A stretch of 64,000 nt of DNA from a virus (Duplodnaviria; Caudoviricetes), in the IMG/VR virus record IMGVR_UViG_3300025011_000016; one strand, 5' to 3'. Positions 9,793 to 61,258 of the stretch are shown in pieces. The position numbers and the translations under genes are program-made. The notes under the pieces are model-generated. The model made no database searches and had not been told where the DNA came from. It was given only the letters and a program-made list of their open reading frames with translations. The stretch's first letter is position 1, and each line of letters opens with the position of its first letter.

Positions 9793-12615
9793 ATGAAAAT
9801 TGTACCTAATAAACAACAAAAGAAAGCTGTTATTGAATCAGTGAAATGGTTAAAGAGTGGTTATAAACAAGTCTTTGAAATATCAGGTCCTCCAGGATCA
9901 GGTAAAACCTTTATAGTTTATTTAATACGAAAGGCAATGAAGCTAAATCCCTTGGATGTTCTATTTATGGCATATGTAGGAAAAGCTACAATGGCTTTGA
10001 CATTACAAGGTAATAATGCAAAGACAATGCATAGTTCTATTTATGATAGGGTTGATTTACCTAAGATGGATGAGAATGGTAAGTTTATTTTAAAAAATGG
10101 TAGAATACTTACAACTCCTGGTTTTGTTAAGAAAAAATCTTTACCTGATAATATAAAACTTATAGTGGTGGACGAAGGTTCTATGATTAATGAAAAATAC
10201 GCTTTAGATATTTTAAGCTTCAAGTTACCAGTTTTAGTGCTCGGGGACTTAAATCAGCTTTTTCCTATCTTTGGGAAACCTTATTTCTTAAGACAACCTG
10301 ATATTATATTAACAGAAATTATGAGACAGGCTAAAGATGATCCTATTATTCATTTAAGTCAAAAGGCAATTAATGGTGAAATTATTGAGATAGGAAAATA
10401 TGGTGATAGATGTTTTGTTATTAATAAAGAAGATATCACAGACAATATGCTTACAAAAACAGATATCGTTATTTGTGGTAAAAATAAGACACGGGATCAT
10501 ATAAATAAATATGTTAGAGAAGAAATATATAAAATAGACAAGCCTTATCCAGTAAAAGGTGAGAAATTAATATGTAGACAAAATAATTGGGATATGTCTG
10601 TCGATGAAGGTAAAATATTCTTAGTTAATGGTCTTGTAGGTTACGTTGAAGAAACACATTTAGACACTTATAATAAAAGATCTTTATGTATTGATTTTAG
10701 GCCTGAGTTTTTAAAAGAAACTTGTTTTGAAAGAGTAGCAATTGATTCTTTTATGAGTCACGTTGCATAGTAATATGCAATTGCAACTACTTTAATTGCG
10801 GGAAACTCCTTAGAACTTTATCTACTAATGTAACATGATAAAGATTGGACAATCTGCAGCCAATGATCTATTCATAATAGATTTAGGTCCAACGACTAGA
10901 ATGGGAAAGTTCGTAGGGCTCAAGTGAGTGGGTGAGACTCCCTTAAATCGAAATGGGTGGCCCCATTATAATAATTAGTATAATGGGTGAAGATATAGTC
11001 TGTGCTTTAAGGAAACTTAGAGAATAACTAACCGTAAGTCTTAATAACTATTCTGTATATAATTATATTATACAGTTAACAAATAATATAAGAACGGGGG
11101 TGATATAAAATGATTAAGACTTTTAAAACAAGAATACGACCGAATAAAGAACAAGAGGTATATTTAAATAAGTGCTTTGGGTATAGAAGGTTTATATATA
11201 ATAATGCGTTAGAATACTTTAATACTCTTTTAAAATATAATAATAATGTTATTGATAAGGATTTAAAGAAGTTCTTTGATAAATTTGATTATATTACTCA
11301 TATATATTCTAAGAAAGAAAAGGGACCGGGATTTGAATGGACTAAAGAATATAATAAGTCCATAAAGAATGAAGTGGCTAGTGATGTTAACTTAGCTGTT
11401 AATAGATTTTTTAAAGATATTAAAAATAAGAAGCGTTGTAAACTGCATTTTAAAAGAAAGGTTCATGGAAATGGATCGTTTAGAATATATAGTAAGCATA
11501 AAACTAATGTTATGATTCTTGATATGAAATTATTCTCTTTTATTATTAATAGAGAATTTGGTCATATGTCATTAAAAACATATGAGGACATAAGTTTCTT
11601 ATATCATCATGATATAAAAACAATGACTATTAGTATGAAGAATTTTAAATATTATGTCTCATTTACTTATGAAATAGATGTTCCAAAGCATAAGCATGAG
11701 AAAGATACCATAGGTATAGATTTAGGGATACATAATCCGGTAGTTTGTTTTGATGGAAAAGATATCATAAATCCTAAATTTCCGAAAGGAATTATTAAGA
11801 AACTAGAGAAGAGAGCCGATAAATTTTCAACGATAGTTTCTAAGAAGAAATATGATAAATGTAATCCATCAAAGAACTATATAAAAGCGAGAACCAAGCT
11901 TAATTATATTCATGGTAAGATAGTGAATATTAGAATGGATTATATTCAGAAGGTTTCAACCTTCTTAACTAAGACTTATAGAAATATCGTAGTTGATGAA
12001 TTTAGTTTTAAAGAATTACTAACAGAGTCTGATGGTATTAAACGTATTAATAGAGGTATACATAGAGTAGGTGCCTTTACGTTTATGCAAGTGTTAAAAT
12101 ATAAATGTCACTTTTACGGCAGTGAATATATTTTAGCCGAACCTAATAGTACCATTACATGCTCTGAATGTAATCATAAACTTAAAACTAAGTTGAAGTT
12201 ATCCCAAAGAGTCTTTAATTGTCCTGATTGTGGATATATAGATGATAGGGATAATAATGCGGCTATTAATATTTATAAGTCATATAAGAATCTTTATTAA
12301 CTAACGTAAATAGAGATTTCGCCGTTGGTCGGACGGTTTAAAGAACCTTGACGGTTAAGTTATTGTGGTATCTAACGAATACTACTAACACGACAGTATA
12401 AGCATTTATTTACACCATATGAACAGAGAGATAATAAACGTAGCTATTATAATAAATTTGAATTTGCCAACGCAATAAGCGTTCATTTATCACAAGGATC
12501 ACAATATAATACAGTTTTAATATATAATGAAAGAATGGGAGATAAAGAGTATTATAAGAAATGGTTATATACAGCAATATCGAGAGCGGTATCCGGATTA
12601 GTATTGGCCGTTTAA
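9793..12615 (+). CDS. RecD/Dda-like SF1 helicase, 2 exons (~390 aa spliced)
   Basis: Exon 1 9793-10746 has GPPGSGKT and VDEGSM. Exon 2 12397-12615 has SVHLSQGSQY and LYTAISRA. Junction reads VAID|YKHLF. Confidence 0.88.
10747..12396 (+). mobile_element. IStron-like element 1: group I intron + tnpB + omegaRNA-like right end
   Basis: Inserted after TTGAT. P1 TGAT/GTCA, ribozyme core 10790-11000, tnpB downstream of the S element, conserved right end ...CTAACACGACAG. Confidence 0.88.
11110..12300 (+). CDS. tnpB: TnpB (IS200/IS605-family RNA-guided nuclease)
   Basis: N-terminal KTRIRP..EQ..L..CFG..RFIYN, RuvC-I GIDLG, zinc finger CSEC..CPDC, RuvC-III DRDNNAAINI. Confidence 0.92.
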   Translation: MIKTFKTRIRPNKEQEVYLNKCFGYRRFIYNNALEYFNTLLKYNNNVIDKDLKKFFDKFDYITHIYSKKEKGPGFEWTKEYNKSIKNEVASDVNLAVNRFFKDIKNKKRCKLHFKRKVHGNGSFRIYSKHKTNVMILDMKLFSFIINREFGHMSLKTYEDISFLYHHDIKTMTISMKNFKYYVSFTYEIDVPKHKHEKDTIGIDLGIHNPVVCFDGKDIINPKFPKGIIKKLEKRADKFSTIVSKKKYDKCNPSKNYIKARTKLNYIHGKIVNIRMDYIQKVSTFLTKTYRNIVVDEFSFKELLTESDGIKRINRGIHRVGAFTFMQVLKYKCHFYGSEYILAEPNSTITCSECNHKLKTKLKLSQRVFNCPDCGYIDDRDNNAAINIYKSYKNLY

Positions 12616-13898: not shown

Positions 13899-16800
13899 AT
13901 GGCTAAATTTACAGATGATCAAATAGAACACATAGAAAGTGACATAGAGAAGATTCAGACTAAGCCTAAATATAATTGGGCTATTATATAGTGATATATA
14001 ATATAAACTTTTTTAATTGACGGAAACTTCCTTAGAGTCTAAACTACTAAATTGATATTTTAGTATATTGATGGCTGAGTGTAATTAACTCAGGTATAGT
14101 AATAATGTTTAGGATTGGATAATCCGCATCCAAGTCTCTTATAATAAGAGAAAGGTTCAACGACTAAATGTAGAGCTCAAGTGAGTGGGTGGAAATCCCT
14201 TAAATCGAAATGGAAAGCATCTTTAATAAAAGATGATGATATAGTCTTATATCCTAATGAAAATTAGGGAAGTTCATAATAGAACTGCACAGCTCAGCAA
14301 ACTGTGTGAAATAATGAATATGTACGTCAGCTATTTAGCACACCTAGGCGCATTACATTTATCTAAAGAGGTAATAAATAATTCTATAGATGAATGTATT
14401 AATCAAAATTCACCAGCTAACGAAATTAATATATATTTAGATGAAGGTGAGAATACTTTACTAGTTGCTGATAATGGTAGAGGAATAGCTTTCGATAAAA
14501 TGGAAATTGTGTGCACTAAATTACAAGCAGGTAGTAAGTTTACCAGAGAGGGTAGTGGTGGAGCTTCTGCTGGAGAAAACGGGTGTGGCATTACGGCCGT
14601 GAATTCGCTGTCGGAACACTTTGAGATAATCTCAACTCGTTATGGTGAAAGGGCTATAATTGAATTTGAATCTGGTAAGTTGGTCAGGTCACCAGTAATT
14701 AAAAAAATCGGTGATAAAACTAAACACGGTACTACAGTAAAATTTAAACCCAATCCATTTTACATGGGTGACGATTGTGATATCCCAACAGATTTATTGA
14801 TTGAATGGATTGAAAAAATAGTTTATTTAATGCCATCAAATATAGAAATATCACTAAGTGTCTCCAGAAAAGGTAAAGAATCTGCAATAAATAAAAAGTA
14901 TCGTAATAAAAATGGTTTAAAGGACTATATTTTGAAATTGTGTAAAAAGCCTATTTTAGATCCAATTCATTTTATGAAATCTTTAAAAATTAAAGAATTT
15001 GATAAAGGTAGAGAGATCGAAAGATTCATTGGATTAGAAACAGCTTTTACTTACAATTCAAATAGTATGGAACCTATTATTGAATCATTTTGTAATTTTG
15101 TGGTCACTGTTGAAGGGGGTATTCACAACGATGCTGTTAAACAAGGTGTTGTCCAATTCTTAGTTAGGAAAACTAAGGAGGGTTTATCTGATAAAGAATC
15201 GAAAAATATTGATATACTACCTATAGACGCTACTCAAGGATTAGTGTTGACATTATACTTAAGTACCGATATGAATATGATGTTTGCATCACAAACGAAA
15301 GAAAAACTTTCTAATAATGCTTTCTTCAAACCACTCAGAAACATGACATTTAATTCATTGGATGAATACTTTAAAAAAGAAGTTAATGATTTAAAGAAGA
15401 TAACAAGTTTTATTAAGACTAATGCTAAAGCAAGAATTGAATCAAACAAAGCTAGAAATGCTGTTATTAAAGGTGAAACTACTTCATTCGAAGAACACAA
15501 AATGAAGAATTTCTCTCCTGCAAATAATTTAGGGAATGATTACAGAGAGTTATTTGTTATAGAAGGTAAATTAGATTGCCTTATTTTCTTTAATTGACGG
15601 GAAACTCCTTAGAACTTCTTAATTGAAGATTGGACAATCCGCAGCCAAGTCTCTTTATATAAGAGAAAGGTTCAACGACTAGAGTATGTAAGCTCGTAGG
15701 TTTATTTATAATCCGAAATGGGAAAACAATAGATTTATTCTATTGAAGAGATAGTCTAATATCCTAATTAACATTAGGGAAGTTCATAAGAGAACTGTAT
15801 AGAGTTATAATCTATATGAATGATTGGATTCAGCAAAGGGTAGTGCAAGGTTAGGTAGGGATACGGATACTCAGGCATTATTTGCAATGCGAGGAGTTCC
15901 ACTTAATAGTTTTAATCTAAAGTTAGATAAAGTTTTATTGAATGATGAATTTAGGGATTTAACTAAAGTATTAAAATGTAATATCGGTGAACGATTTGAT
16001 ATTACAAAACTAAATTATAAAAAAATAATCATACTTACGGATGCGGATTAATTCATAGTCCCATTATGTAGTGATATATAATGTAAACTTCTTTAATTGA
16101 CGGGAAACTCCTTAGAACTTCTTAATTGAAGATTGGACAATCCGCAGCCAAGTCTCTTTATATAAGAGAAAGGTCCAACGACTAATAGTAGGGCTCAAGT
16201 GAGTGGGGTAATAACACCCTTTAAATCGAAAATAGAGGCATCTTTTATAAGATGATGATATAGTCTACACTTTATTGAAAGATAAAGAAAGATAGCATCT
16301 TTACATTATCTAACGAATAATGTTAATATGAATGGATTGATGGTTTGAGAATAGCCTCACTAATTTGTGTATTCTTCTTATGTCATATGCCAGAGATAAT
16401 TAAGCAAGGATATTTATATAAATCAGTATCACCACTATATTTATTAAATGATACTAAGGGTCATTTTATTATTGATAAAAAAGAGTATGTATCAGTTTTT
16501 GAAAAAGCTGTTAGAAATAACATTAAAGTTATTGATCCAGAAACTAATATTGTTTATACTAATAATGAGATGAAAGAGTTACTATTAAAGAATAGGGGAT
16601 ATTTAGAGGAGTTATACCGAGTTAGTAATCATTTTGCAGTTAATCCTTTTATCATTGAATACATCACCATATATGGGGATCAATCAAATTTCATAAATAA
16701 AATGAAAAAGAAATTCCCTGAGTTAACACTTGATGAAGAAAATGTTTTATCTGGTATATATGAAGGAAAATATCAGATTATTATATTGGATAAAATATTC

Positions 16801-36500: not shown

Positions 36501-37552
36501 AACTATAAGTATTATAGTGGCCAGAATAATTAACTGGGTATAGTAATAAAAATAAGGATTGGATAATCCGCAGCCAAGATTCTTATATAAGAATAAGGTT
36601 CAACGACTATCGAAAGCTTTTAATTAAGTTAGTAGAGTAAGCTCACAAGTCAATAATGGTGAGTTAAAACAGAAAGCTCCTAGAAATAGGATAAAGATAT
36701 AGTCTGCTATCTCAAGGAAACTTGAGGAGTTCATAATGGAACTGCATAAATTGACGATTTATGTGAACAAAAAAGGATACGAATTGGAGATTACTTATAT
36801 AGTTTCCCTGCATAGTAATATGCAGTTTAACAACTCTTTTAATTGACGGGAAACTCCTTAGTGCTTTATAATATAAAGATTGGACAATCCGCAGCCAAGC
36901 CTCTTTATGAGAGAAAGGTTCAACGACTAGAGCATTGCTCATAGATTTACAAGTTAATGGTAAGTCGAAATGGAGAGCTCTATTAATAAACTTTATTAAT
37001 AGATGAAGATATAGTCTGCACCTTAAAGAAATTTAAGGACAATCTTTTGAATTGTAATACATGTTACGAATGTATTTAACATATTGGCAGGAAAATATTA
37101 ACAGTATGATAGGTGTCGATCCAGACATCATAGCTAAACTACATTTATTCTATAGGTCTTCAGTTGTTGGAAGAAGAAACTTAGGTGAAACTTTGGCAAC
37201 TAGACTTAAGTTATTAAATGATTTTAAGTATTCTGCGGAATTCAAAAATAGAAATGTTGAAATTTTACAGGCATATTTAAAAGCTATGGGCGTAAAGATT
37301 GTATTTGAAAATGAGAATATGTATATTGAAATCTATACTGATCAGTTAGAAGAATATTCATCTGAGGGTAGGATATATATATGTACTAAACGTGAGTTTG
37401 AAGCCGTTCAGAGAGAAGCAGAAGTTCGCAGAGAGTTCCGTGAGGATAAGTGCTTAGTGGGAACTCATGCTGAAGTTGAAGCTATTATTCAAGCTCGTAT
37501 CAGCGATCTAAACAAACGAGATACTCATTATGTAATTGACATAAATTTATAA
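33528..37552 (+). CDS. RNA polymerase beta-subunit C-terminal half (probably non-virion RNAP), 7 exons / 6 introns (~755 aa)
   Basis: Exons 33528-34700, 34966-35054, 35329-35345, 35610-36067, 36369-36419, 36777-36791 and 37088-37552 (2268 nt). Restores KITGRYG|NKG, FNSL|GVINR|LNSFQ, GIP|EK and TP|IRIGD|QEN. Confidence 0.88.
34701..34965 (+). ncRNA. Group I intron betaC-I1
   Basis: P1 TACGGT/GCTGTA and core motifs. Confidence 0.88.
35055..35328 (+). ncRNA. Group I intron betaC-I2
   Basis: P1 CCCT/GGGG and core motifs. Confidence 0.88.
35346..35609 (+). ncRNA. Group I intron betaC-I3 (no recognisable P9 domain)
   Basis: P1 ATCGCT/GGCGAT and core motifs. Only 11 nt lie between GATATAGTC and the terminal G. 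Confidence 0.8.
36068..36368 (+). ncRNA. Group I intron betaC-I4
   Basis: P1 TCCT/GGGA and core motifs. Confidence 0.88.
36420..36776 (+). ncRNA. Group I intron betaC-I5
   Basis: P1 GCCT/GGGC and core motifs with a variant P7-P8 region. Confidence 0.85.
36792..37087 (+). ncRNA. Group I intron betaC-I6
   Basis: P1 GGAGAT/GTTTCC and core motifs. Confidence 0.85.
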
Positions 37553-39186: not shown

Positions 39187-42100
39187 GTGAAAGATATGGA
39201 TAAGCAAAATATAATATCACAATTAAGTGATATTCATCAAAGGTTATTAGAAAAAGAAGATTTTGTTGATACTATACAGAGACTAGAATTAATGAAGATC
39301 AATAGACTTATCAATTATCTTTTATATGCAATTACTGAATATGATCCAGATGACAAATTAATACTTCAATTATTAATAAGGATATTGCAAAATATCTTTA
39401 ATAATAGTAGTGAAATATCTCCTGTGACCGATGAGGATTATGATAAATTATATGAGTTAAACAGACAATTTAATAATGAAGAAATTGTTGGATCGTCTTT
39501 TAATAAATCCAATAAGATAATTTCAAGTCATAAATATCCTGATTTGAGAGGAACTCTAGATAAGGTCCATTTCATTAGAATTAAAGATAAGGGTAAAGAC
39601 AAACGAAGATCTATAGAAGATTTTATTAATACTGTAGAAAATAAAATAGGCAGATCTTTAACTAAGGATGAATCATTCGCCTATCTATTTCCTAAATGGG
39701 ATGGTATATCATGTATATTCGAATGTGATGAAAATGGTAATACCGATAAGGCATTATCTAGAGGTGATACTGATATAAATGAAGCGGTCGACTGGACTAA
39801 ATTGTTTAAAGGATCTAATTTCAAGTATGTGTTCGGTAATGATATAAATAGATTATTTGGTTTAAAAACAGAGATTGTAATGAGTCGTTCAAATTATAAA
39901 TTAATATGTGAAAAAGAAGGAGATCTTAAAAGTCCAAGGAGTGCCGTATCGTCTATATTAACTTCATTAACTGGTGACACATCGAATTTACCATATCTAA
40001 CTATAATACCTTTACAGACTCAGGAGTTTGAAACTAAATCTATATATACTCCAACTATAGTATATGATGAGTTTCCATACAGTGGAGGATATTTAAACAA
40101 TTTAGATGAGATCGAATTAAGAATGTTGGAGTTAAGAGAACGTATTTATACTGAAATGGATATAGATACAGATGGTGTGGTTTTTCGTTTAGCTGATCCA
40201 TATATACAAAAACTATTGGGTCGGGAAGATAAGATAAATAAATATGAGTTTGCATATAAATTCCCTCCAGAACAAAAGAAAACTATAATTAAAAATGTTA
40301 ATTTCTCAGTTGGTCTTTTAGGTTCAGTGCGACCAGTAGCAGTAATAAAACCTGTTACAATAAAAGGTAATACTATAACCAATATATCATTGGGTTCTAT
40401 AGATAGATTTGAAGAATTGGATTTAAGATTAGGTGATGAAGTTATAATAAAATATGATGTTATACCATACCTATCAATAGATTCAACATGTAGAAAAGGA
40501 GATGGGACTAAGTTTACAACTCCAACAAAATGTATATATTGTAAGGAAGAATTAGTTAAAGATCCCATATTGAAATGTATTAACGAAAAATGTAATTGTC
40601 GAATTATAGGTAAGATTCTAAACTATACTAGTAAGATGAGTATTTCAAATATGGATGTTGGAACAGTAACCACTTTATTTGAAAATAAGTTATTACGATC
40701 TATTGGTGATCTATATAAACTCAAAGATCATAAATCTGATATAGTTTCATTAAGTGGTTTTGGTGAAAAATCCTTTAATAATATTATTAAAGGTATTGAT
40801 TCAAGACGAGATGTTTATGATTATGAGTTATTGGGTTCATTGGGTATTACAGATATAGGTAGGAAAATGTTTAAGCGAATTTTAAATATATATTATATTG
40901 ATGAACTTATAGATTCAAGTACATGAGTCTCATTGCATAGTGATATGTAATAGTAATTACTTTAATTGCGGGGATCTCCTTAGAACTTAAAACACTCTAA
41001 AGTAATAATGTTTAAGATTGGACAATCCGCAGCCAAGATTCTTAATAAAGAATAAGGTTCAACGACTATCCCAGTGGATGTGAAATTCATCATTAGGAGT
41101 AGGGCTCAAGTGAGTTGGGTGAAATCCCATTAAATCGAAATGAGTAACCCCATTATAAACCATTATAATGGGTGAAGATATAGTCTGTGCTTTAAGGAAA
41201 CTTAAAGATATAACTTAATCGTAAGTCCTAAAAATTTCATTTATATATTATTACTATGATACTAACAAATAATATAAGAAAGGAGGTGAATTAAATTGAT
41301 TAAAACTTTTAAAACAAGAATACGACCGACGAAAGAACAAGAAGTATATTTAAACAAATGCTTTGGATACAGAAGGTTTATATATAATAATGCTTTAGAA
41401 TACTTTAATACGATCTTAGAATTCAATGGTAATAATCTGGATAAAACATTAAAGAAGTTCTTTAATAAGTTTGATTATATCACTAATATATATTCTAAGA
41501 AAGAAAAAGAACCTGAACTGGAATGGACTAGGGAATATAATAAAAACATAAAGGATCAGGTATCTAGTGATTTTAATATAGCTGTTAATAGATTCTTTAA
41601 CGATATTAAAAATAAGAAGCGATGTAAACTTCATTTTAAAAGAAAGATCCATGGAAATGGGTCTTTTAGAATATACAATAAAAATAAAGGTAATGTTAAA
41701 ATTCTTGATAAAAACATATTCTCTTTTATTATTAATAGAGAATATGGTCATATGTCATTAAAAACATATGAAGATATAAGCTTTTTATATCATCATGATA
41801 TAAAAACTATGTCTATTCGTATGAAGAATTTTAAATATTATGTTTCATTCACCTATGAATTGGACATTCCAAAGCATGATCATGAGAAAGACATCATAGG
41901 TATAGACTTAGGGATACATAATCCAGTAGTTTGTTTTGATGGAAAAGATGTCATAGCTCCTAAATTTCCGAAAGGAATTATTAAGAGACTAGAGAAGAAA
42001 GTCGATAAGTTTTCAACGATAGTTTCTAAGAAGAAATATGATAAACGTAATCCATCAAAGAACTATATAAAAGCGAGAACCAAGCTTAATGATATTTATA

Positions 42101-42952
42101 TTAAAATAACAAATATCAGAATGGATTATATCCAGAAGGTATCTACATTTTTAGCTAAAACTTATAAAAACGTTATAGTTGATGAATTTAGTTTTAAGGA
42201 TGTATTAACAGAGTCTGATGGTATTGAGCGTATAAATAGAGGTATACACAGAGTTGGTGCCTTTACATTTACCACAGTGTTAAAATATAAATGCCACTTT
42301 TATGGTAGTGAATATATTTTAGCATTACCTAACAGTACGAACACATGCTCTGTTTGTAATCATAAAGTTAAAACTAAAATGAAGTTATCTCAAAGAGTCT
42401 TTAATTGCCCACAATGTGGACATATAGATGATAGAGATAACAATGCGGCTATTAATATCTATAATACATTTAAACGATCTTTATTAACTAACGTAAATAA
42501 AGATTTCGCCGTTGGTCGGACGGTTCAAAGAACCTAAACGGTTAAGTTATTATGGTATCTAACGAATACCATTAACACGACAGTTATGCCTAAAGAATAA
42601 GATGGGAGGGCTGTTATTAATCCGTGGGATTAAAGAAATAACAGCCGTTAAAATTATTGAGGGCATAAAGTCGAATAAAAAACTTATTGATTTATTACGA
42701 TCCGAGATTAATTTAAGGAGGGATGTAAGACGATATACAATTAAAGTATGTTTTACTAAAGTTAGAGATAAAGATTTTGAGAAATTTCTTGAAAGTAAGA
42801 ATGTATTGGTTCTTGAAAAATATAATAAGGAGGTTGATGTGTTAATCATACCTTATAAAGATATTGATTCAGTCAAAGTTACTACTGCGAAGAAAGATGG
42901 TAAGGATATCGTAACCATCGATGAAGCTTATAAGATGTTTGGTTATAAGTAG
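39187..42952 (+). CDS. ligA: NAD-dependent DNA ligase, 2 exons (~698 aa)
   Basis: Exon 1 39187-40914 has PKWDG, DGVV, AYKF and a C4 zinc finger. Exon 2 42584-42952 has HhH and BRCT-like tail. Junction LID|LCLK is in frame. Confidence 0.9.
40915..42583 (+). mobile_element. IStron-like element 3: group I intron + tnpB
   Basis: Inserted after TAGAT. P1 AGAT/GTCT, core motifs and right end ...TTAACACGACAG. Confidence 0.88.
41296..42537 (+). CDS. tnpB: TnpB, close paralog of 11110..12300
   Basis: Same motifs (GIDLG, CSVC..CPQC, DRDNNAAINI). TTG start after AAGGAGG. The ORF reads into the right-end RNA. Confidence 0.92.
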   Translation: MIKTFKTRIRPTKEQEVYLNKCFGYRRFIYNNALEYFNTILEFNGNNLDKTLKKFFNKFDYITNIYSKKEKEPELEWTREYNKNIKDQVSSDFNIAVNRFFNDIKNKKRCKLHFKRKIHGNGSFRIYNKNKGNVKILDKNIFSFIINREYGHMSLKTYEDISFLYHHDIKTMSIRMKNFKYYVSFTYELDIPKHDHEKDIIGIDLGIHNPVVCFDGKDVIAPKFPKGIIKRLEKKVDKFSTIVSKKKYDKRNPSKNYIKARTKLNDIYIKITNIRMDYIQKVSTFLAKTYKNVIVDEFSFKDVLTESDGIERINRGIHRVGAFTFTTVLKYKCHFYGSEYILALPNSTNTCSVCNHKVKTKMKLSQRVFNCPQCGHIDDRDNNAAINIYNTFKRSLLTNVNKDFAVGRTVQRT

Positions 42953-43525: not shown

Positions 43526-46500
43526 TTGAAGGACTTCATAAAGGATTATAACAACACCAATGAAGAAAATATCAATTTTGATCTAATGACACGATCACAT
43601 GATGCTGATTTAACAGAGTATGTTGTTAATACCTGTAAATCATTAGAAGTTCTTAAATATATTAAATTCATTGGTTATGAATATATAACTGATGAAACGA
43701 AAATAGATATTAATTACTATATGAGTACGAGGAAGAAAAGTAAGAAGAAAAATGAAACAAAGTATATGTACCTGCAAGATAGTCGATATGGTGAAATGCA
43801 TTTAAAGTTTCATTTAAAATGTAAAGATCGATCATTAACTTTTATCAAGAAGATATTATTACCAGTGGCTGATGATAATGATTATTATTTAGTTAAAGGT
43901 AAAAGACATTCATTATTATATCAACTAGTTGATAGTTCAACTTATACAACTAGACAGAATTTAACATTAAAATCATTAAGACCTATTACGATGAAACGAA
44001 CTGAAAGAATATATTCAGATACAGATGGTACTAAACATTCAGCTCCTTCATATGCAATTTATATCTTCAAGAAAGAAGTAGATATATTATTATTCTATTT
44101 TGCAAAGATAGGTGTGTCAAGAACTTTAGAATATTTTTCAGTAAATCATATAATGAAGTTTAAATCAGAAATTGAAGATACTATCAATAATATATATTTC
44201 TCAATTAATAGTAAATTACATGTAGAGATCAATAGACATTTCTTTGATAAATATCCATATGTTAAGAGTATAGTATTTATGATATTGAATATTTGCACTA
44301 ATAGATTAACTGTTGAAGATCTAGAAAATAAATCTTTCTGGATTGAAAAGATAGGCTCTATGAATGCGACTAATGCATATAACTATCTAGAAAAAGGTAC
44401 TAATACTTTAGTATTCTTTGATAGGTTATTAGATGAAACAACTAAGAATATTTTAAAAATTCATGATGAGAATAATAAAAATATATACTCTGTAATTCGT
44501 TGGATTAAATTATAGTCCCATTATAGAGTGATCTATATTGAAAACTTCTTTAATTGTCGGGAAACTCCTTAGTGCTTTATAAAGATAAAGATTGGACAAT
44601 CCGCAGCCAAGATTCTTATAATAGGAATAAGGTTCAACGACTAATTTAGAGCTCAAGTGAGTGAGTTTAATATAACTCTTAAATCGAAATAAGAAGCATC
44701 TTATATAAGATGATGATATAGTCTGTGCTTTATTGAAAGATAAAGAAAGATAACATCTTTACATTATCTAACGAATAATGTTAACACTCAGGTTTCAAAA
44801 CTTTAATGAATTACGTAAGAAAGATAATCTTGATCTTGCCAATAAACGTTTACGATGTAATGAACTCATCGCATCATTATTAACTAAAGCTTTTAGTACT
44901 AGAGTTGATAGAATTATTGGTTTTGGTAATAAAGTTACGTTAGATAACATTAAGGAAATATTCAAATTTCCAGGTGATGTAATAATGCAGCAATTGCATA
45001 AGTCAGGATTATTTAGATATGATATTTTATTGTCCATTATAGTAGTGATATTATAATGAATTTTCTTTAATTGGCGGGGACATTCTTAGGGCTTAAACTA
45101 CTAAAATATATCAGTGATGATATACTAACTAAGAGTAACTAACTTAGTATGAGTAATAATGTTTAAGATTGGACAATCCGCAGCTAAGCATCTTTATATA
45201 AACCCCCATAATTATTAATACGTTATACAATATAAAGGAGAGGTGTGACTGTAATGAAAGGACGATTGGGTGAAAATAAATGTCCCTCTTGTTACGAATA
45301 ATTATTCAATTAATTCTGAGGGATTTATTAGGAATGATAAATTCAATAGAATTTTGACCCGATGGAAAAATAATAGAGGTTATGAAGCTGTGCAATTATC
45401 ATGTATTGATGGTATAACAAGAAGTTTTACAATTCATAGATTGATGGCTCATCATTTTATACCAGGGTTCGACATTTCAGATAGATCCATTGTTGTTCAT
45501 CATAAGGACAGTGTAAATAAAACTAACTCATTAGATCTTCTAACCGTTTGTACTCAAAAAGAAAATATTAAGTATTCTATCGAAGAAGGTAATAAACCAA
45601 ATGGTGAAAAACATCCGATGGGTAAATTTCCAGATGAGCTGGCTAATAAAATAGTTGCCTTATTACAAAAAGAAAAAAGTACCGATGAAATATTTAATAT
45701 ATTAGATTTAGAAGTTAAGAAGAATATGCGTATATTTATAAATGATCTTAGAGCTAAACGAACCCGATTGTATTTAACTGAAGGTTTGGATTTAAAGAAG
45801 CATGTGCAGGAAAAACATGATATAAACTTGGTGAAGAGGGTGATTCGTTATATGAAGATAGGTATGACGGTAGATAATATAATCAATATGATTGGAAAAG
45901 GAAATGCTGGTAGGCATGAAAGGGAGAGATACTCCTCGTTAATACAAAGGATACATGACGGGAAAGCGTGGGGAAGATTATATAAAGATGATAGTTCAAC
46001 GACTAATGATGACTACATGGTTATTAAAATTAAAATGTAGTTATAGATTTACAAGCTAATGGTAAATCGAAATGGGGAACACCTCATATTAAGTTGATAT
46101 GAGATGAAGATATAGTCTGGTATCCTAATATTAAATTAGGGAAGTTCATAAGAGAACTGGGTTTCGTTGCGGAAAACCTGAACCTGGGGATAAAATTAAC
46201 GATCTCGACTTCTTTAGTAAGTTCAAATATACCCTAAATTTTGGGGCGTTATAGAGTGATCTATATAGATAAAATTCTTTAATTGTCGGGGAACTCCTTA
46301 GAACTTCTTAATTGAAGATTGGACAATCCGCAGCCAAGATTGTTGATAAACAATAAGGTTCAACGACTAGAGTATAACTCGTAGATATATAAGTTAATGA
46401 TATATCGAAATAAGTTTAATCTTCTTATAGAAGATTGTGATATAGTCTTGTATCCTATATAACATTAGGGAAGTTCATTTGAGAACTGTATAGAGTTACG

Positions 46501-47746
46501 ATCTATATGAAAGTATACGTAAAGGACCAAATTCCTTGGGTTTTAATAAATAGGCCCATGATCTTTTAATTGCGGGAAACTCCTTAGTACTTCTATATGA
46601 AGATTGGACAATCCGCAGCCAAAATTGTTGATAAACAATAAGGTTCAACGACTAGAGTATAACTCGTAGATATATAAGTTAATGATATATCGAAATATAG
46701 AACTATCGAAAGATAAAGAGATAGTCTGGTATCCTAATTAACATTAGGGAAGTTCACAGGAGAACTGCATTATTTTACGAATAATGTGAACTCATCGAAT
46801 AAAAATGATAATAATATCTCAGTTAAATATCGCGGCATACACCCGAGTTATCTGGCCCGCGTAGATATTAACGTTTGCGGTGAACGTAGAAATATAATTG
46901 CCGCCTTTTCTTTAATTGACGGGAACTCCCTTATAGCTTAAACTACTAATAGTAACAAGTTTAAGATTGGACAATCCGCAGCCAAGATTGTTATAAAACA
47001 ATAAGGTTCAACGACTAGAGTGATAACTCGTAGATTCGAAAGAATTGAAATGGGAAAACGATAGAGTTATTCTATTGAAGATATAGTCTAATATCCTAAT
47101 ATAAGTTAGGGAAGTTCATAAGAGAACTGCATAGATTGATAAACTGTGTGAATAAATGAATTCAGACCCTAGAAATAAATTTGGGGCAATATCGAGTGAT
47201 CGTTATTGTTAAACTACCTTGACTGCGGGAAACTTCTTAGAGCTTTAAATTGATAAAGATTGAACAATCCGCACCCGATATTCTATATAATAGAATAAAG
47301 TTCAACGACTAGAGCATATTTGCTCGTAGATATAAAGTTATATCGAAATTAGTAGAATCTCTTAGGAGATTATGAGATAGTCTGGTATCCTATATAACTA
47401 TAGGGAAGTTCATAAGAGAACTGTACTATTTAACGAATAGTATGAACACACGGGAACTAGTGGTATTATAACACCATTCTGTAAAACTAGTGGATTATTC
47501 TTCGATGGTGCATTTGAACCAGAAAGTTTTAAATATGATTTTGATAAGGAGATAACTGACTTTAGAAAATCAACTAGTAATAACATAATTGTTGATACTC
47601 ACTATGATAATATATCTGAGTATTTTGAAGGTAGAGAACGATTTAAAGAAATGAATAGTCGAATCAAAATATCAGAGATTGAACGAACTGATAATAGTAA
47701 GTATTATATTAAAATTAAGCTTGCTAGTAATACTGATGATATATAA
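43526..47746 (+). CDS. RNA polymerase beta-subunit N-terminal half (probably non-virion RNAP), 7 exons / 6 introns (~556 aa)
   Basis: Exons 43526-44505, 44792-45023, 46189-46235, 46520-46541, 46798-46881, 47159-47170 and 47453-47746 (1671 nt). Restores KFKYT|LKGPNSLG|NKN..RGIHPSYLARVDINVCG|NSDP|GTSG, matching the RpoB fork-loop region. Confidence 0.85.
44506..44791 (+). ncRNA. Group I intron betaN-I1
   Basis: P1 GGAT/GTCC and core motifs. Confidence 0.87.
45024..46188 (+). mobile_element. Group I intron betaN-I2 with HNH ORF
   Basis: P1 GAT/GTC. Q precedes the ORF, R lies inside the ORF 3' end, and S is at 46107. Confidence 0.85.
45270..46040 (+). CDS. Intron-encoded HNH homing endonuclease
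   Basis: IHRLMAHHF..VHHKDSVNKTN..TQKEN. GTG start. Confidence 0.8.
   Translation: MKINVPLVTNNYSINSEGFIRNDKFNRILTRWKNNRGYEAVQLSCIDGITRSFTIHRLMAHHFIPGFDISDRSIVVHHKDSVNKTNSLDLLTVCTQKENIKYSIEEGNKPNGEKHPMGKFPDELANKIVALLQKEKSTDEIFNILDLEVKKNMRIFINDLRAKRTRLYLTEGLDLKKHVQEKHDINLVKRVIRYMKIGMTVDNIINMIGKGNAGRHERERYSSLIQRIHDGKAWGRLYKDDSSTTNDDYMVIKIKM
46236..46519 (+). ncRNA. Group I intron betaN-I3
   Basis: P1 CCCT/GGGG and core motifs. Confidence 0.87.
46542..46797 (+). ncRNA. Group I intron betaN-I4
   Basis: P1 TGGGT/GCCCA and core motifs. Confidence 0.87.
46882..47158 (+). ncRNA. Group I intron betaN-I5
   Basis: P1 GCGGT/GCCGC and core motifs. Confidence 0.87.
47171..47452 (+). ncRNA. Group I intron betaN-I6
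   Basis: P1 CCCT/GGGG and slightly divergent core (GACTGCGGGAAA, AATCCGCACC). Confidence 0.85.
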
Positions 47747-56989: not shown

Positions 56990-59900
56990 ATGGATTTCAT
57001 GAAAGGTATTAATAAAGAGAATGTCATGTTAATTAATATAATATATCATAATAAGAGAAAAGAGAATAATTATAATGATTACTTAGATATTATCACTAAA
57101 GATTTAACCACAGGTGAAAAAATACTTACAACTATCGAGAATCCTGAAATGGATATATATTTTACAAAAGAGGAGCATAGAAATTATGACTATAATAAGA
57201 ACTTTATGGAAATTGATAAGACTGATAGACATAGATTTAAATATAAAGATCTAACTAGATCCATAGCTAAAATGGCTGGGCCTAGTTATGAGAACTTCAT
57301 TAAACAATCTATAGAAACACAAAATTATGCTAGAATAAATAATATCCATAAATATAAATATGTATTTGGATCTGATGTTGATATTGAAAATTGGTATAGA
57401 ATTCAATGGTTATTAAATTATGATAATAATAAACCTAAATCCGTAACTAAGCTATTTCTCGACATAGAAGTCGACGGTCGGGATGTACCTGGATTCCCCA
57501 GAGATGGTGAAGTGCCAATTAATGCTGTAACGATAGTAGATGAATTTAGTAATCAATCATTTACATTCTTATTGGATAATCCATTAAACCCTCAAATAGA
57601 AGATTTTAAAAATGATGTGGAATCTTTTGTTGAAGAACTACATAATGATTTTGATGAATCATATGGGGAATTAAAATATAACTTATTTATTTATGATGAT
57701 GAAGTTCAAATGTTAATAGATGTATTTAAATTGATTAACACTCTGAACCGAGATTTCCTATTAGTGTGGAATATGAGTAAAATGATGCTCCTTATAAAGG
57801 CGACTTTATAAGAAAATTTCTTTAACTGCTGGAAACTCCTTAGAGCCTTTATTATCAGAGTATAATAATATAAAGGATTGGGCAATCAGCAATCAAGTTC
57901 AATAACAAACTAAGTTTTATTACATTTATTAGAGGAGGGTAAAACATGTATATAGTAATACGCAAAGATAAAGAAGTATTTAAATTATCAACTTATCCTG
58001 GGATTAAAAAAGATATGTATTCTATTAGTAACTACGGGTCTATACGTAATAATGTGACAAACGAGATATTTTTTCCAACATCGAGAAACTCAGCAGGTTA
58101 TGTACACACTTCTTTATGTACAGAATCATTTAAAGTTTACACTAGTGTTTTGGTATCACGTTTAGTTGCTTGGGAATTTTGTGATGGTTATGATAAGGAA
58201 CTAAATAGGGTGGAAGTCAATCATAAAGATATCAACAGGGCTAATAATTATTATGAGAATTTAGAATGGGTGACTCGGGGAGAAAATACTAAATTTGCCT
58301 ACGTGCATGGCAATCGTAAGGTGATAGTGCCAGATTCTAGGGGACCAAGAGCAAAGATACGCGGATCATTAAATCCCAAGAATGTTTTCAGTGAAGAGTT
58401 TGTACATGAACTCTGTCAGTTATTCACGGACGGTAAGAGCACTAAAGAGATATTAAAAATATTCAATACGAGTAAAAAATTAAATACACAACTCTATTCA
58501 TTACTCATGACTTTGAAACATAGAAAAGGATGGGGACATATTACGGAAAAATATGTATATTGATATTTGTTATTGAAAAGATTCAACGACTAGAGTGAGA
58601 ACTCGTAGACCCTTTTCATGGGGTGGACATAATAAGTCCTTCGCGAAATGGGAAACATCTCCGATGTGGAGATGAAGATATAGTCTGATATCTTAGGGAA
58701 ATCCTAAGGAAGTTCATAAGAGAACTGCGTAGTATAAAAAACTATGTGAACTGTTTGTTCGATGTGCCGTACATGATCGCACGTATGTTAGAATTAGGAA
58801 TGAATCCTGTTGAAGTGATGTGTCATAAAGATTTTAAAATACAAGAAGCTTTTTTCAAAAAAGATCTTCGAAATTTTATGATAGCTAATAAAGGAGATTA
58901 TTTTAAGATATCATCTTATACTGTATATTTAGACCAAATGATAGTATATGCCAGTTTAAGAAAAGGAGGTAGTCAGTTACGATCAAATGCTCTTAGCTAC
59001 ATTGCTCAAGTTGAAATTGGTGATGAAAAATTAGACTATTCTGAAGATGCTAATATCAAAACTTTACCATATGTTAATTACAAGAAATTCGTTAAATACA
59101 ATATCAAAGACGTTTTACTACAACTTGGAATTGAGAGAAAAACTCATGATATTGATAATGTTTATTTAAGATCGTATACAAATGTAACAGCTTATTCAAA
59201 AGTATTTAGACAAACGGTATTTTATAGTGCCGGTGATTCTTTAATTGACGGGAAACTCCTTATAGCTTCTTAATGAAGATTGGACAATCCGCAGCCAAGA
59301 TTCTTATAATAAGAATAAGGTTCAACGACTAGAGTATAACTCGTAGGTTTAATAACTGAAATGGGAAACCGATAGAATTTATTCTATTGAAGATATAGTC
59401 TATTATCCTAAAGTAATTTAGGGAAGTTCATAAGAGAACTACATTATCTTACAAATAATGTGAATTATAGGTTCTTAAAAAACAGAGCATTTTTAGAGTT
59501 TTATAAACAAGGTTTGATTATTGGTAATAATACCAATATTGATTATGGATTACCTCCTCAGATAGCTAAAGAAAAAGATGAGGATGATGAGAAATTTGCA
59601 GGTGCATTAGTTGGTGATCCTGAATTGAATAGTAAGACTGGTATAATGATGTTAGGAACTCCAAGTAAATACATCTATGATAACGTTGTAGATATGGATA
59701 GCTTTGTCCCATTATGTAGTAATATGTAATGAAAACTTCTTTAATTGACGGGGAACTCCTTAGAACTTCTTAATCGAAGATTGGACAATCCGCAGCCAAG
59801 ATTCTTATTATATAGAATAAGGCTCAACGACTATCCCATTGGTATTGAAATATACAACAGGAGTAGGGCTCAAATGAGTGGGTGAAATTCCCTTAAATCG

Positions 59901-60600
59901 AAATAAGAAGCATCTTATATAAGATGATGATATAGTCTGAACTCATATGAGAATATGAGAGAGTTTACTTTATATTATCTAATAAATAATATTAACAAAT
60001 TGATGGGTAAATATTGCTCATATAAAACTTCTTTAATTGACGGGAAACTCCTTAGAACTTCTTAACTGAAGATTGGACAATCCGCAGCCAAGATTCTTAC
60101 ATAAGAATAAGGTTCAACGACTAGAGTGTGACTCGTAGATATAAAGTTATATCGAAATGAAAAGCTCTCTTAATAAGAGATGAAGATATAGTCTAATATC
60201 CTATATAATTATAGGGAAGTTCATAAGAGAACTGTATAGAGTTACGATCTATATGAATACCATGGCGTTTTATCCTAATATGATTATGGCTTTTAATATA
60301 TCACCAAATTGTATAATCGGTAAATTACTCTTAGACACAACCATAGAAGACCTATATAATATCAAAGATATTGAAGCCGATATATATGATTGTGGGCGAG
60401 ACTTCGTAGATAACATGTTAATTAACAATCCTGGTAACATGGGCAGTAAATGGTTTAATCTTCCGAAAATAGAAGAACTTAATGAGTTAATACGAGAGAA
60501 GTTCTTAATGAATAAGAAGACTAAACTAATTATACCTGACTCATATAAAGATAAGTTATTTATTGAGAATCTAGTAATAAATATTAAAGGAGTGAAATGA
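56990..60600 (+). CDS. Family-B DNA polymerase, exonuclease + motif A part of a split enzyme; 5 exons / 4 introns (~606 aa)
   Basis: Exons 56990-57778, 58758-59218, 59471-59699, 60003-60008 and 60265-60600. ExoI FLDIE, ExoII WNMS|FD, ExoIII YNIKD and motif A VVDMD|MG|AFYP. Confidence 0.88.
57779..58757 (+). mobile_element. Group I intron pol-I1 with HNH ORF
   Basis: P1 GAGT/GCTC. Divergent core (AACTGCTGGAAA, AATCAGCAA), R GATTCAACGACTA and S AAGATATAGTC. Confidence 0.87.
57946..58563 (+). CDS. Intron-encoded NUMOD4/HNH homing endonuclease
   Basis: SRLVAWEF..NHKDINRANNYYENLEW. Paralog of 25080. Confidence 0.85.
   Translation: MYIVIRKDKEVFKLSTYPGIKKDMYSISNYGSIRNNVTNEIFFPTSRNSAGYVHTSLCTESFKVYTSVLVSRLVAWEFCDGYDKELNRVEVNHKDINRANNYYENLEWVTRGENTKFAYVHGNRKVIVPDSRGPRAKIRGSLNPKNVFSEEFVHELCQLFTDGKSTKEILKIFNTSKKLNTQLYSLLMTLKHRKGWGHITEKYVY
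59219..59470 (+). ncRNA. Group I intron pol-I2
   Basis: P1 CGGT/GCCG and core motifs. Confidence 0.87.
59700..60002 (+). ncRNA. Group I intron pol-I3
   Basis: P1 GGAT/GTCC and core motifs. Ends AAATTG. Confidence 0.85.
60009..60264 (+). ncRNA. Group I intron pol-I4
   Basis: P1 TGGGT/GCTCA and core motifs. Confidence 0.85.
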
Positions 60601-60601
60601 A

Positions 60602-61258
60602 ATGATTAATTCACCTATAATGGAATTAACCTCGAAGGACATTAAGAAGTTAAATGAATTCAATCAAATTGTAAAAAGAGTTTTTAATGGTATTTATATA
60701 TTTAGTGATGGGATAATTATGACTGATCCAGAAATAGGTAATAGAGTTAATAAAGGTGTTCATTTTGCAACAACTTCAATACAACCTATTGATAATATAC
60801 CGAGTAATTATTATATGTCTCTTAAATGTGATAAGATATTTAAATTCATTCGTGATAATAAAAAGAATATACGATATTTAACAATAGATGGAGGTGATTT
60901 ATATATTGATCTTAAAGATGAGAGTAAAGAAATTATTGGACGTATTTTTGATGCTGATGATAATCTTTATTTGAAGAAACGCGCCATATCAAACACTATA
61001 GAGTATCATAAAACACATTCATCATTAGTGTCTCAGAATGTTATTGAATCATTATCTGATAACGAAATATATACTTATGGTGATGATGAATATAGAGTCC
61101 GAATAACTAAGGAATTATTACCGGCTCTAAAGAGGGATATGAAAGTTAATATTTCATTCAGAGATGAAGTCGGTGATCCAACACTTTTTTATATTATATT
61201 ATCTGTGGATAAAGGTGATGTTATAACATATCATATGTATAAGTGTATAAAGTACTAA
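60602..61258 (+). CDS. Hypothetical protein
   Basis: RBS AAAGGAG, directly after the polymerase stop. Confidence 0.6.
   Translation: MINSPIMELTSKDIKKLNEFNQIVKRVFNGIYIFSDGIIMTDPEIGNRVNKGVHFATTSIQPIDNIPSNYYMSLKCDKIFKFIRDNKKNIRYLTIDGGDLYIDLKDESKEIIGRIFDADDNLYLKKRAISNTIEYHKTHSSLVSQNVIESLSDNEIYTYGDDEYRVRITKELLPALKRDMKVNISFRDEVGDPTLFYIILSVDKGDVITYHMYKCIKY

Follow-up and report, generated by a model that had tools for sequence, protein, structure and literature searches.

How can a phage DNA polymerase gene be expressed when two group I introns stand so close together within its motif A that only six nucleotides (nt) of coding sequence lie between them? The question is raised by a stretch of 64,000 nt from a virus (Duplodnaviria; Caudoviricetes), recorded as IMG/VR virus record IMGVR_UViG_3300025011_000016 and called the window below, in which a polymerase gene at 56990-60600 contains one intron at 59700-60002 (intron A), another at 60009-60264 (intron B) and, between them, the hexamer ATGGGT at 60003-60008 (the micro-exon). 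The exons and introns of this gene lie on the + strand. We consider it highly probable, judging from the sequence and its comparison with related phages, that A and B are two independent group I introns inserted 6 nt apart in motif A, and that their separate splicing would restore D-M-D-M-G-A-F-Y-P. According to this proposal, A and B would have been acquired independently within the motif A codons. Intron A follows the catalytic Asp codon, a site that its lineage also occupies in many relatives (at least eight); intron B lies two residues further on, after the Gly codon, and would derive from another subfamily of the introns carried by this phage. As a predicted P1 with a U.G wobble and a terminal G are present in each intron, two ordinary self-splicing reactions, one after the other and in either order, would suffice to join exon 3, ATGGGT and exon 5.

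The closest matches to the gene are DNA polymerases from jumbo phages of the AR9/PBS1 type with Bacillus, Staphylococcus or Listeria hosts (~30% identity by tblastn), and on these protein comparisons we assign it to the N-terminal subunit (exonuclease plus motif A) of a family-B DNA polymerase that is split as in AR9/PBS1. When exon 3, the micro-exon and exon 5 are joined, the protein reads ...YIYDNVVDMDMGAFYPNMIMAFNISPNC..., and in the spliced model DMGAFYP arises only after both splices. The chance of finding Met-Gly in those 6 nt of random sequence is ~1/1000 (1/64 x 4/64). In the closest relative, which is P0004 on locus L006 with 72% identity, the corresponding stretch, DMDMGAFYPNMIM, is contiguous, and its DNA reads GATATGGATATGGGAGCT where the window has GATATGGAT / ATGGGT / GCG. 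A single base distinguishes the micro-exon from L006, a synonymous change in the third position of the Gly codon, and the T found there in the window is the base needed for the U.G pair at a group I 5′ splice site. Uninterrupted DMDMGAFYP is also present in four more distinct relatives (L046, L058, L130, and L136), and a fifth further relative (L135) has uninterrupted DFDMGAFYP. Among ~160 related loci that were fetched, two residues separate the Asp from [SA][LMF]YP in 72 of 72 distinct uninterrupted DNA contexts, and none (0/72) lacks this two-residue spacer.

The motif itself varies among homologs (DMDMSSFYP, DMDFSSMYP, DMDFTAMYP, and DFDLSSLYP, beside DMD-MG-AFYP in the window). A family profile aligns the motif stretch to residues 404-438 of RB69 gp43, with D493 equivalent to the catalytic Asp D411, M494 to L412, G495 to T413, and Y498 to Y416. 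The restored sequence thus has the family-B motif A layout of a catalytic Asp, two residues and [SA]-[LMF]-Y-P, alignable to RB69 D411-P417. From the homolog spacing together with the RB69 alignment, we read the micro-exon as encoding the two residues that immediately follow the catalytic Asp. The initial annotation had proposed a 6-nt ATGGGT exon within a motif A of the DxxSLYP type, and both lines of comparison bear this out.

Such a tight arrangement could conceivably be a product of mis-assembly from near-identical intron copies, and the 22 related introns of the window do give repeat-induced joints when contigs are matched at 85% identity. We give this explanation practically no credence: a Logan unitig of run X1 spans 59910-60054 with zero differences and at the phage's own depth (284, compared with 316-320 in the flanking exons), soil metagenome contigs of another study (X5) match 59844-60013 and 60103-60301 exactly, on both sides, and the residues encoded by the 6 nt are exactly those expected. 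The tandem junction was assembled correctly. The joints listed in the contig comparison arise from cross-mapping of one intron paralog onto another at 85% likeness. No joint 59699>60003, 60008>60265, or 59699>60265 was found in the DNA contigs of four runs, which says nothing on whether intron-less alleles are absent, since contigs drop rare variants. For the region 59100-60700, short 100%-identical contigs were seen in runs X5 and X6, which are soil and sediment metagenomes from studies other than that of the groundwater source.

Both introns show the features expected of group I: a core scoring above the Rfam RF00028 gathering score (50), a U.G pair at the 5′ splice site and a terminal G. 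Intron A (303 nt, no open reading frame [ORF]) matches RF00028 at 59669-59959 with 85.6 bits and an E-value of 1e-21, and intron B (256 nt, no ORF) at 59999-60216 with 69.5 bits and an E-value of 7e-17. With a U at position -1 and a G at the end of each, the boundaries given in the initial annotation (59700-60002 and 60009-60264) hold. Both the sequence itself and the comparisons bear out the two predicted cores, adherence to the rules for splice sites, and the protein that splicing would restore.

Intron A follows U59699 and ends at G60002, the only G in a 41-nt A/T-rich tail. Its predicted fold comprises P1, in which GGAU (59696-99) pairs with GUCC (59706-09) and U59699.G59706 forms the wobble, followed by P2 (59711-14/59720-23), P3 (59736-41/59905-10), P7 (59829-33/59933-37), P8 (59911-26), P9 (59942-59), and a tail hairpin (59973-78/59986-91), after which 11 nt lead to G60002. 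The closest paralogs in the window are those at 16039 (73% identity) and 44496 (72%). They share with A, and with the TnpB introns at 10747 and 40915, a target ending in ...GAT|, GUCC as the guide, and a distinctive tail consisting of a hairpin with a CTAA-type loop, 10-11 nt and the terminal G. Because this spacing is conserved in the A subfamily, G60002 is probably the true 3′ end of intron A. An alternative is that the 3′ splice site is G60005, which would leave a 3-nt exon (GGT) and yield DMDGAFYP; the first Gs to follow G60002 are G60005-60007, and G60005 keeps the frame. Yet every homolog has two residues at this place and not one, the terminal G of the subfamily lies 10-11 nt past the tail hairpin, which points to G60002, and bases 60003-60005 are needed for P1 of intron B, so that this alternative is scarcely credible. 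We also considered whether the unusual 3′ tail of intron A might have resulted from the insertion of intron B, and rejected the idea since the tail is common to 16039, 44496, and the TnpB introns.

The members of the A subfamily (16039-16345, 44496-44800, 10735-12426, and 40903-42593) all stand after ...GAT| and have the guide GUCC or a close variant. Intron A and the ligase copy at 40915 also have a specific P7.1/P7.2 insertion in common. An IStron combines tnpB and a guide-RNA scaffold inside the intron, and neither would fit intron A as we find it, with its 303 nt and no ORF; by sequence it appears to be an empty relative of the TnpB introns (10747, 40915) and not an IStron. Introns of the A lineage occupy this codon in relatives with no more than 35-66% polymerase identity, either directly after GAT (L102/L107 and L012) or one base further, at GAC-T| (L024/25/26, L035, L039, L040, L043, L059, and L078). 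The guide covaries with the exon, being GUCC opposite GGAU in the window, its paralogs, L102, and L012, vs. GGUC opposite GACU in L024, L035, L039, L040, L043, L059, and L078, and this compensatory change across relatives supports P1 of intron A and its 5′ splice site. In the polymerases of AR9-type jumbo phages, introns have thus landed repeatedly at the codon for the catalytic Asp of motif A, and across relatives the insertion points within 7 nt number at least three. The intron of L102 (5802-6590; also in L107) is 789 nt long and may hold an ORF.

A further pairing was noticed at the 3′ splice site of intron A, where UGAUGGG (60001-60007) spans the junction and can pair with CCCAUUA (59708-59714) over 7 base pairs (bp) at -8.2 kcal/mol. 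This is stronger than the cognate P1 of intron A. The repeated codons of DMDM probably produce this pairing incidentally, and it could compete with correct folding.

Intron B follows U60008 and ends at G60264. Its P1 (60003-60010/60014-60021; AUGGGU/GCUCAU) contains the wobble U60008.G60016 and can pair all six bases of the micro-exon, two of them as G.U, with two A-U pairs continuing into the intron, making an 8-bp hairpin of -5.9 kcal/mol. The initial annotation had placed the downstream P1 on the micro-exon, as we do, while counting five of the six exon bases as paired, a number that should be six. The remaining predicted elements include P7 (60119-23/60189-93), P8 (about 60166-80), and P9 (60200-16), followed by P9.1/P9.2 and the terminal G60264. 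The closest paralogs are at 2635 (79%) and 46225 (78%), and the 5′ end of intron B resembles theirs, with an AAAU..UU loop preceding the guide G, which supports cleavage after U60008. P3 of intron B (60028-34/60159-64) pairs CUUCUU(U) with GAAAAG, where the paralogs have CUUCUU/[AG]AGAAG or CUUUUU/GGAAAG; it looks like one half of a compensatory change.

Several observations weigh against two complete and independently spliced introns at this locus. P1 of intron A consists of four exon pairs (GGAU/GUCC) and 1-2 pairs on the intron side. P10 amounts to at most 1 bp in intron A (A60003-U59705), and in intron B to an offset 4-bp possibility seen by inspection, neither of which is convincing. Not every group I intron requires P10. 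The small size of this pairing also leaves unsupported an earlier claim, namely that the upstream intron needs bases of the micro-exon at its 3′ splice site: with no more than one pair to AGCUUU, 5′ of the guide, what the two introns share is geometry and not pairing. To these points must be added the in-frame G60005 discussed above. Among the ~160 related loci, no intron at site B was found in another genome, and no relative has two introns in motif A. Consequently, the 5′ splice site of intron B is placed by comparison with paralogs, in place of orthologs. Finally, intron B has no P2 and its P3 contains a C x A mismatch or 1-nt bulge, so that its efficiency could be low or could depend on a protein factor.

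Taken further, the same features would fit an explanation in which one of the two introns, most likely B, no longer splices, so that the gene would be a decaying pseudogene or would depend on a trans-acting factor or on the neighboring ribozyme. The imperfect P3, the missing P2 and the lack of an orthologue at the site all point this way, as does the rank of intron B, which scores 15th of the 22 matches in the window. We nevertheless find this explanation very unlikely, as none of the five exons is disrupted or out of frame and each keeps its conserved residues, P4-P6, P7, J8/7, and P9 of intron B match the family consensus, and the T at -1 is a wobble-compatible synonymous choice. Moreover, a depth of ~300x in one sample and the identical sequence in samples of other studies indicate a replicating population. 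Intron B may be the weaker ribozyme of the pair; from their sequences we infer that both introns splice efficiently.

Are the two introns one element in two copies? A and B are 68% identical overall, and their best paralogs reach 73% (A) and 79% (B). In a maximum-likelihood tree they fall in different halves, with weak support (60/96), and their P3-P7 halves are identical at 95 of 102 positions (93%). On this sequence comparison we regard them as different elements and not sisters. An origin of B as a tandem duplicate of A was ruled out by the 68% identity between them vs. 79% to paralogs elsewhere, and by their different 5′ and 3′ ends. A twintron, with one intron inside the other, was likewise rejected, because a complete core, a P1 and a terminal G are present in each of the two, and the intervening 6 nt are coding.

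The arrangement would nonetheless impose a constraint on two independent introns. The terminal G60002 of intron A directly abuts A60003, the first pair of P1 of intron B, and G60002 would have to enter the G-binding site of intron A while its neighbor is engaged in that helix. Because the micro-exon constitutes the 5′ strand of P1 of intron B and G60002 abuts the same helix, simultaneous docking of A and B would be excluded; we reasonably infer that both active sites cannot assemble at the same time, which would imply steric competition or ordered splicing. Either order of reactions would give the same mRNA, and nothing was seen that forces one order. The locus offers a clean natural substrate for asking how two self-splicing ribozymes cope with an exon no longer than one P1 strand, a question seldom open to experiment.

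The exon ends facing the two introns are also alike, AUGGAU at the end of exon 3 and AUGGGU in the micro-exon, because the protein reads D-M-D-M-G, and each can pair with both guides. The predicted energies for the micro-exon are -5.1 kcal/mol with guide B and -6.0 kcal/mol with guide A, and those for the end of exon 3 are -3.9 kcal/mol with guide A and -3.0 kcal/mol with guide B. Given cores that are 93% identical over P3-P7 and exon ends that cross-pair with both guides, some exon skipping, in which the 5′ site of A is joined to the 3′ site of B, is likely as a by-product. By our own reckoning, a hybrid fold joining these sites would cost little. Skipping would delete M494-G495, and the spliced model agrees with the initial annotation that the frame would be kept.

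One could go further and suppose that skipping is the main or a regulated outcome, with a hybrid or cooperative ribozyme joining the two outer sites, so that DMD-AFYP results and replication is throttled through splicing. The in-frame deletion, the cheap chimeric fold and the cross-pairing guides would all accommodate this, and exon skipping has been reported for Twort orf142 and for a gene of SIOphi (>47% of transcripts), according to PMC11878797. We consider it improbable: the spacer that skipping would remove is present in all 72 homolog contexts, the residues of the micro-exon are exactly those of the closest relatives, and each intron retains its cognate P1 and terminal G. A product without the equivalents of RB69 L412-T413 would, from general knowledge of family-B motif A, probably not be a working polymerase. 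A related suggestion builds on two spliceable introns and holds that the ribozymes are mutually exclusive, with an obligatory order and condition-dependent skipping, such that the tandem pair would act as a throttle or timer on the production of active polymerase. We offer this tentatively and regard it as doubtful, noting that, if it were true, the pair would be more than two adjacent parasites.

In the polymerase gene as a whole, four group I introns (intron 1, intron 2, A, and B) were identified by sequence reading and Rfam alignments. Exon 1 (56990-57778), a homolog of AR9 g132 that ends in ...WNMS, was delimited by its ORF, by tblastn and by the gap-free alignment of the spliced model to P0005-P0011. 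Intron 1 (57779-58757) is a group I intron with a weak RF00028 match (58496-58709, 26 bits) and an HNH endonuclease ORF (57946-58563; Pfam HNH_3, E-value 1e-7); its boundaries, U57778 and G58757, were set by the alignment across WNMS|FDVPY. Exon 2 (58758-59218), placed by alignment of the spliced model, is followed by intron 2 (59219-59470), a group I intron without an ORF (RF00028, 71.6 bits; U59218, G59470; alignment across RQTV|FLKNRA). Exon 3 (59471-59699) ends in GAT ATG GAT (D-M-D), the last Asp being the catalytic motif A residue equivalent to RB69 D411, and exon 5 (60265-60600) begins with GCG TTT TAT CCT (AFYP...) and terminates at a stop codon. Introns A and B are both in phase 0, i.e., between codons. 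The spliced five-exon model comprises 1821 nt and 606 amino acids, and aligns without gaps at all four junctions to six uninterrupted homologs (606-637 amino acids), which were gathered by a search with exon 5 alone, and to AR9 gp132. One of the homologs, P0005, has a Pfam DNA_pol_B_exo1 match as well as a weak DNA_pol_B match. Among GenBank phages, no near-identity DNA match to the stretch was found.

These features have a practical consequence for annotation. ORF callers fragment the polymerase gene and overlook two residues of the active site, and in any pipeline that fuses the neighboring ORFs without the micro-exon, the predicted polymerase would have a motif A that is too short. The HNH_3 ORF of intron 1 is the sole nuclease gene among the four introns of the polymerase gene, and it could drive co-conversion of the ORF-less introns downstream. 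Directly after the polymerase gene lies an ORF of 218 amino acids (60602-61258) with no Pfam match, in the position of AR9 g131 (a DnaQ-like exonuclease).

Introns are abundant elsewhere in the window, which is very A/T-rich and contains 22 RF00028 matches above the gathering score in 64 kb. Tandem groups of such matches occur at 2241/2635, 3401/3778/4061, 34665/35045/35292, 36061/36410/36782, and 46225/46519/46853, and inspection suggests exons of ~20 nt at about 36770-36790 and 46517-46540. Three introns are present in the same polymerase gene of a relative, L143 (4795-6059; IMG/VR 3300001528_000360), two of them in tandem around residues 424-464 with a short, poorly conserved exon between them.

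The nearest precedent for the present case is phage Twort, whose orf142 contains three group I introns and undergoes exon skipping (Landthaler and Shub, 1999, as cited in PMC11878797 and PMC3073962). The initial annotation had appealed to this precedent, and the title of that work does appear among the citations of both articles. As in orf142, several related ORF-less introns of the IA2 type lie close together in one essential phage gene, and the similarity of neighboring introns gives scope for skipping of the exon between them; the polymerase gene described here has four introns in all. In the present case the internal exon is 6 nt long, doubles as the 5′ strand of the next P1 and lies in a catalytic motif, and skipping is only predicted.

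A second comparison is with the Bastillevirinae phages, for which Weglewska et al. (2025; PMC11878797) describe polymerase genes with 2-3 introns, a small exon of the phiNIT1 rNDPL gene found by nanopore cDNA, and the SIOphi gene mentioned above, in which the first 5′ site is joined to the second 3′ site. In both settings, group I introns accumulate in replication genes of Bacillus-type phages and small exons are missed by annotation. The Bastillevirinae polymerases, however, belong to another family, and those cases come from cultured phages with RNA proof, whereas the present one is known from DNA alone. The split-polymerase architecture and the motif A layout DFDLSSLYP are shared with g132 of AR9/PBS1, gp207/206 of BpSp, and LPJP1. 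The annotation of AR9 g132 gives a polymerase that comprises the exonuclease and part of the catalytic domain, and the portal region follows this gene. The polymerase genes of BpSp and LPJP1 are also interrupted, at other places in the gene; in contrast to the present case, AR9 g132 has no intron, none of AR9/PBS1, BpSp, and LPJP1 has an intron in motif A, and identity is about 30-35%.

Outside phages, even shorter exons between group I introns have been described in mitochondria: a 1-nt exon in placozoan cox1 (PMC5436844) and a 3-nt exon (Cummings et al., 1990, as cited in PMC8971849). There, as here, a few bases encoding an indispensable residue are cut off on both sides by independent group I introns, and the arrangement originates when a further intron inserts beside one already in place. 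The mitochondrial introns are organellar, of type IB and often protein-dependent, in contrast to the IA2-like phage pair. The 6-nt exon is longer than these and sets no overall size record. In the literature searched, no paper combined group I introns, micro-exons and bacteriophages, and ATGGGT is the shortest phage exon that we found there. Tandem phage introns, small exons missed by annotation and exon skipping have all been published already, for Twort and for the Bastillevirinae (PMC11878797). The 6-nt exon of this polymerase gene is accordingly an extreme case of a known arrangement, and not a new mechanism.

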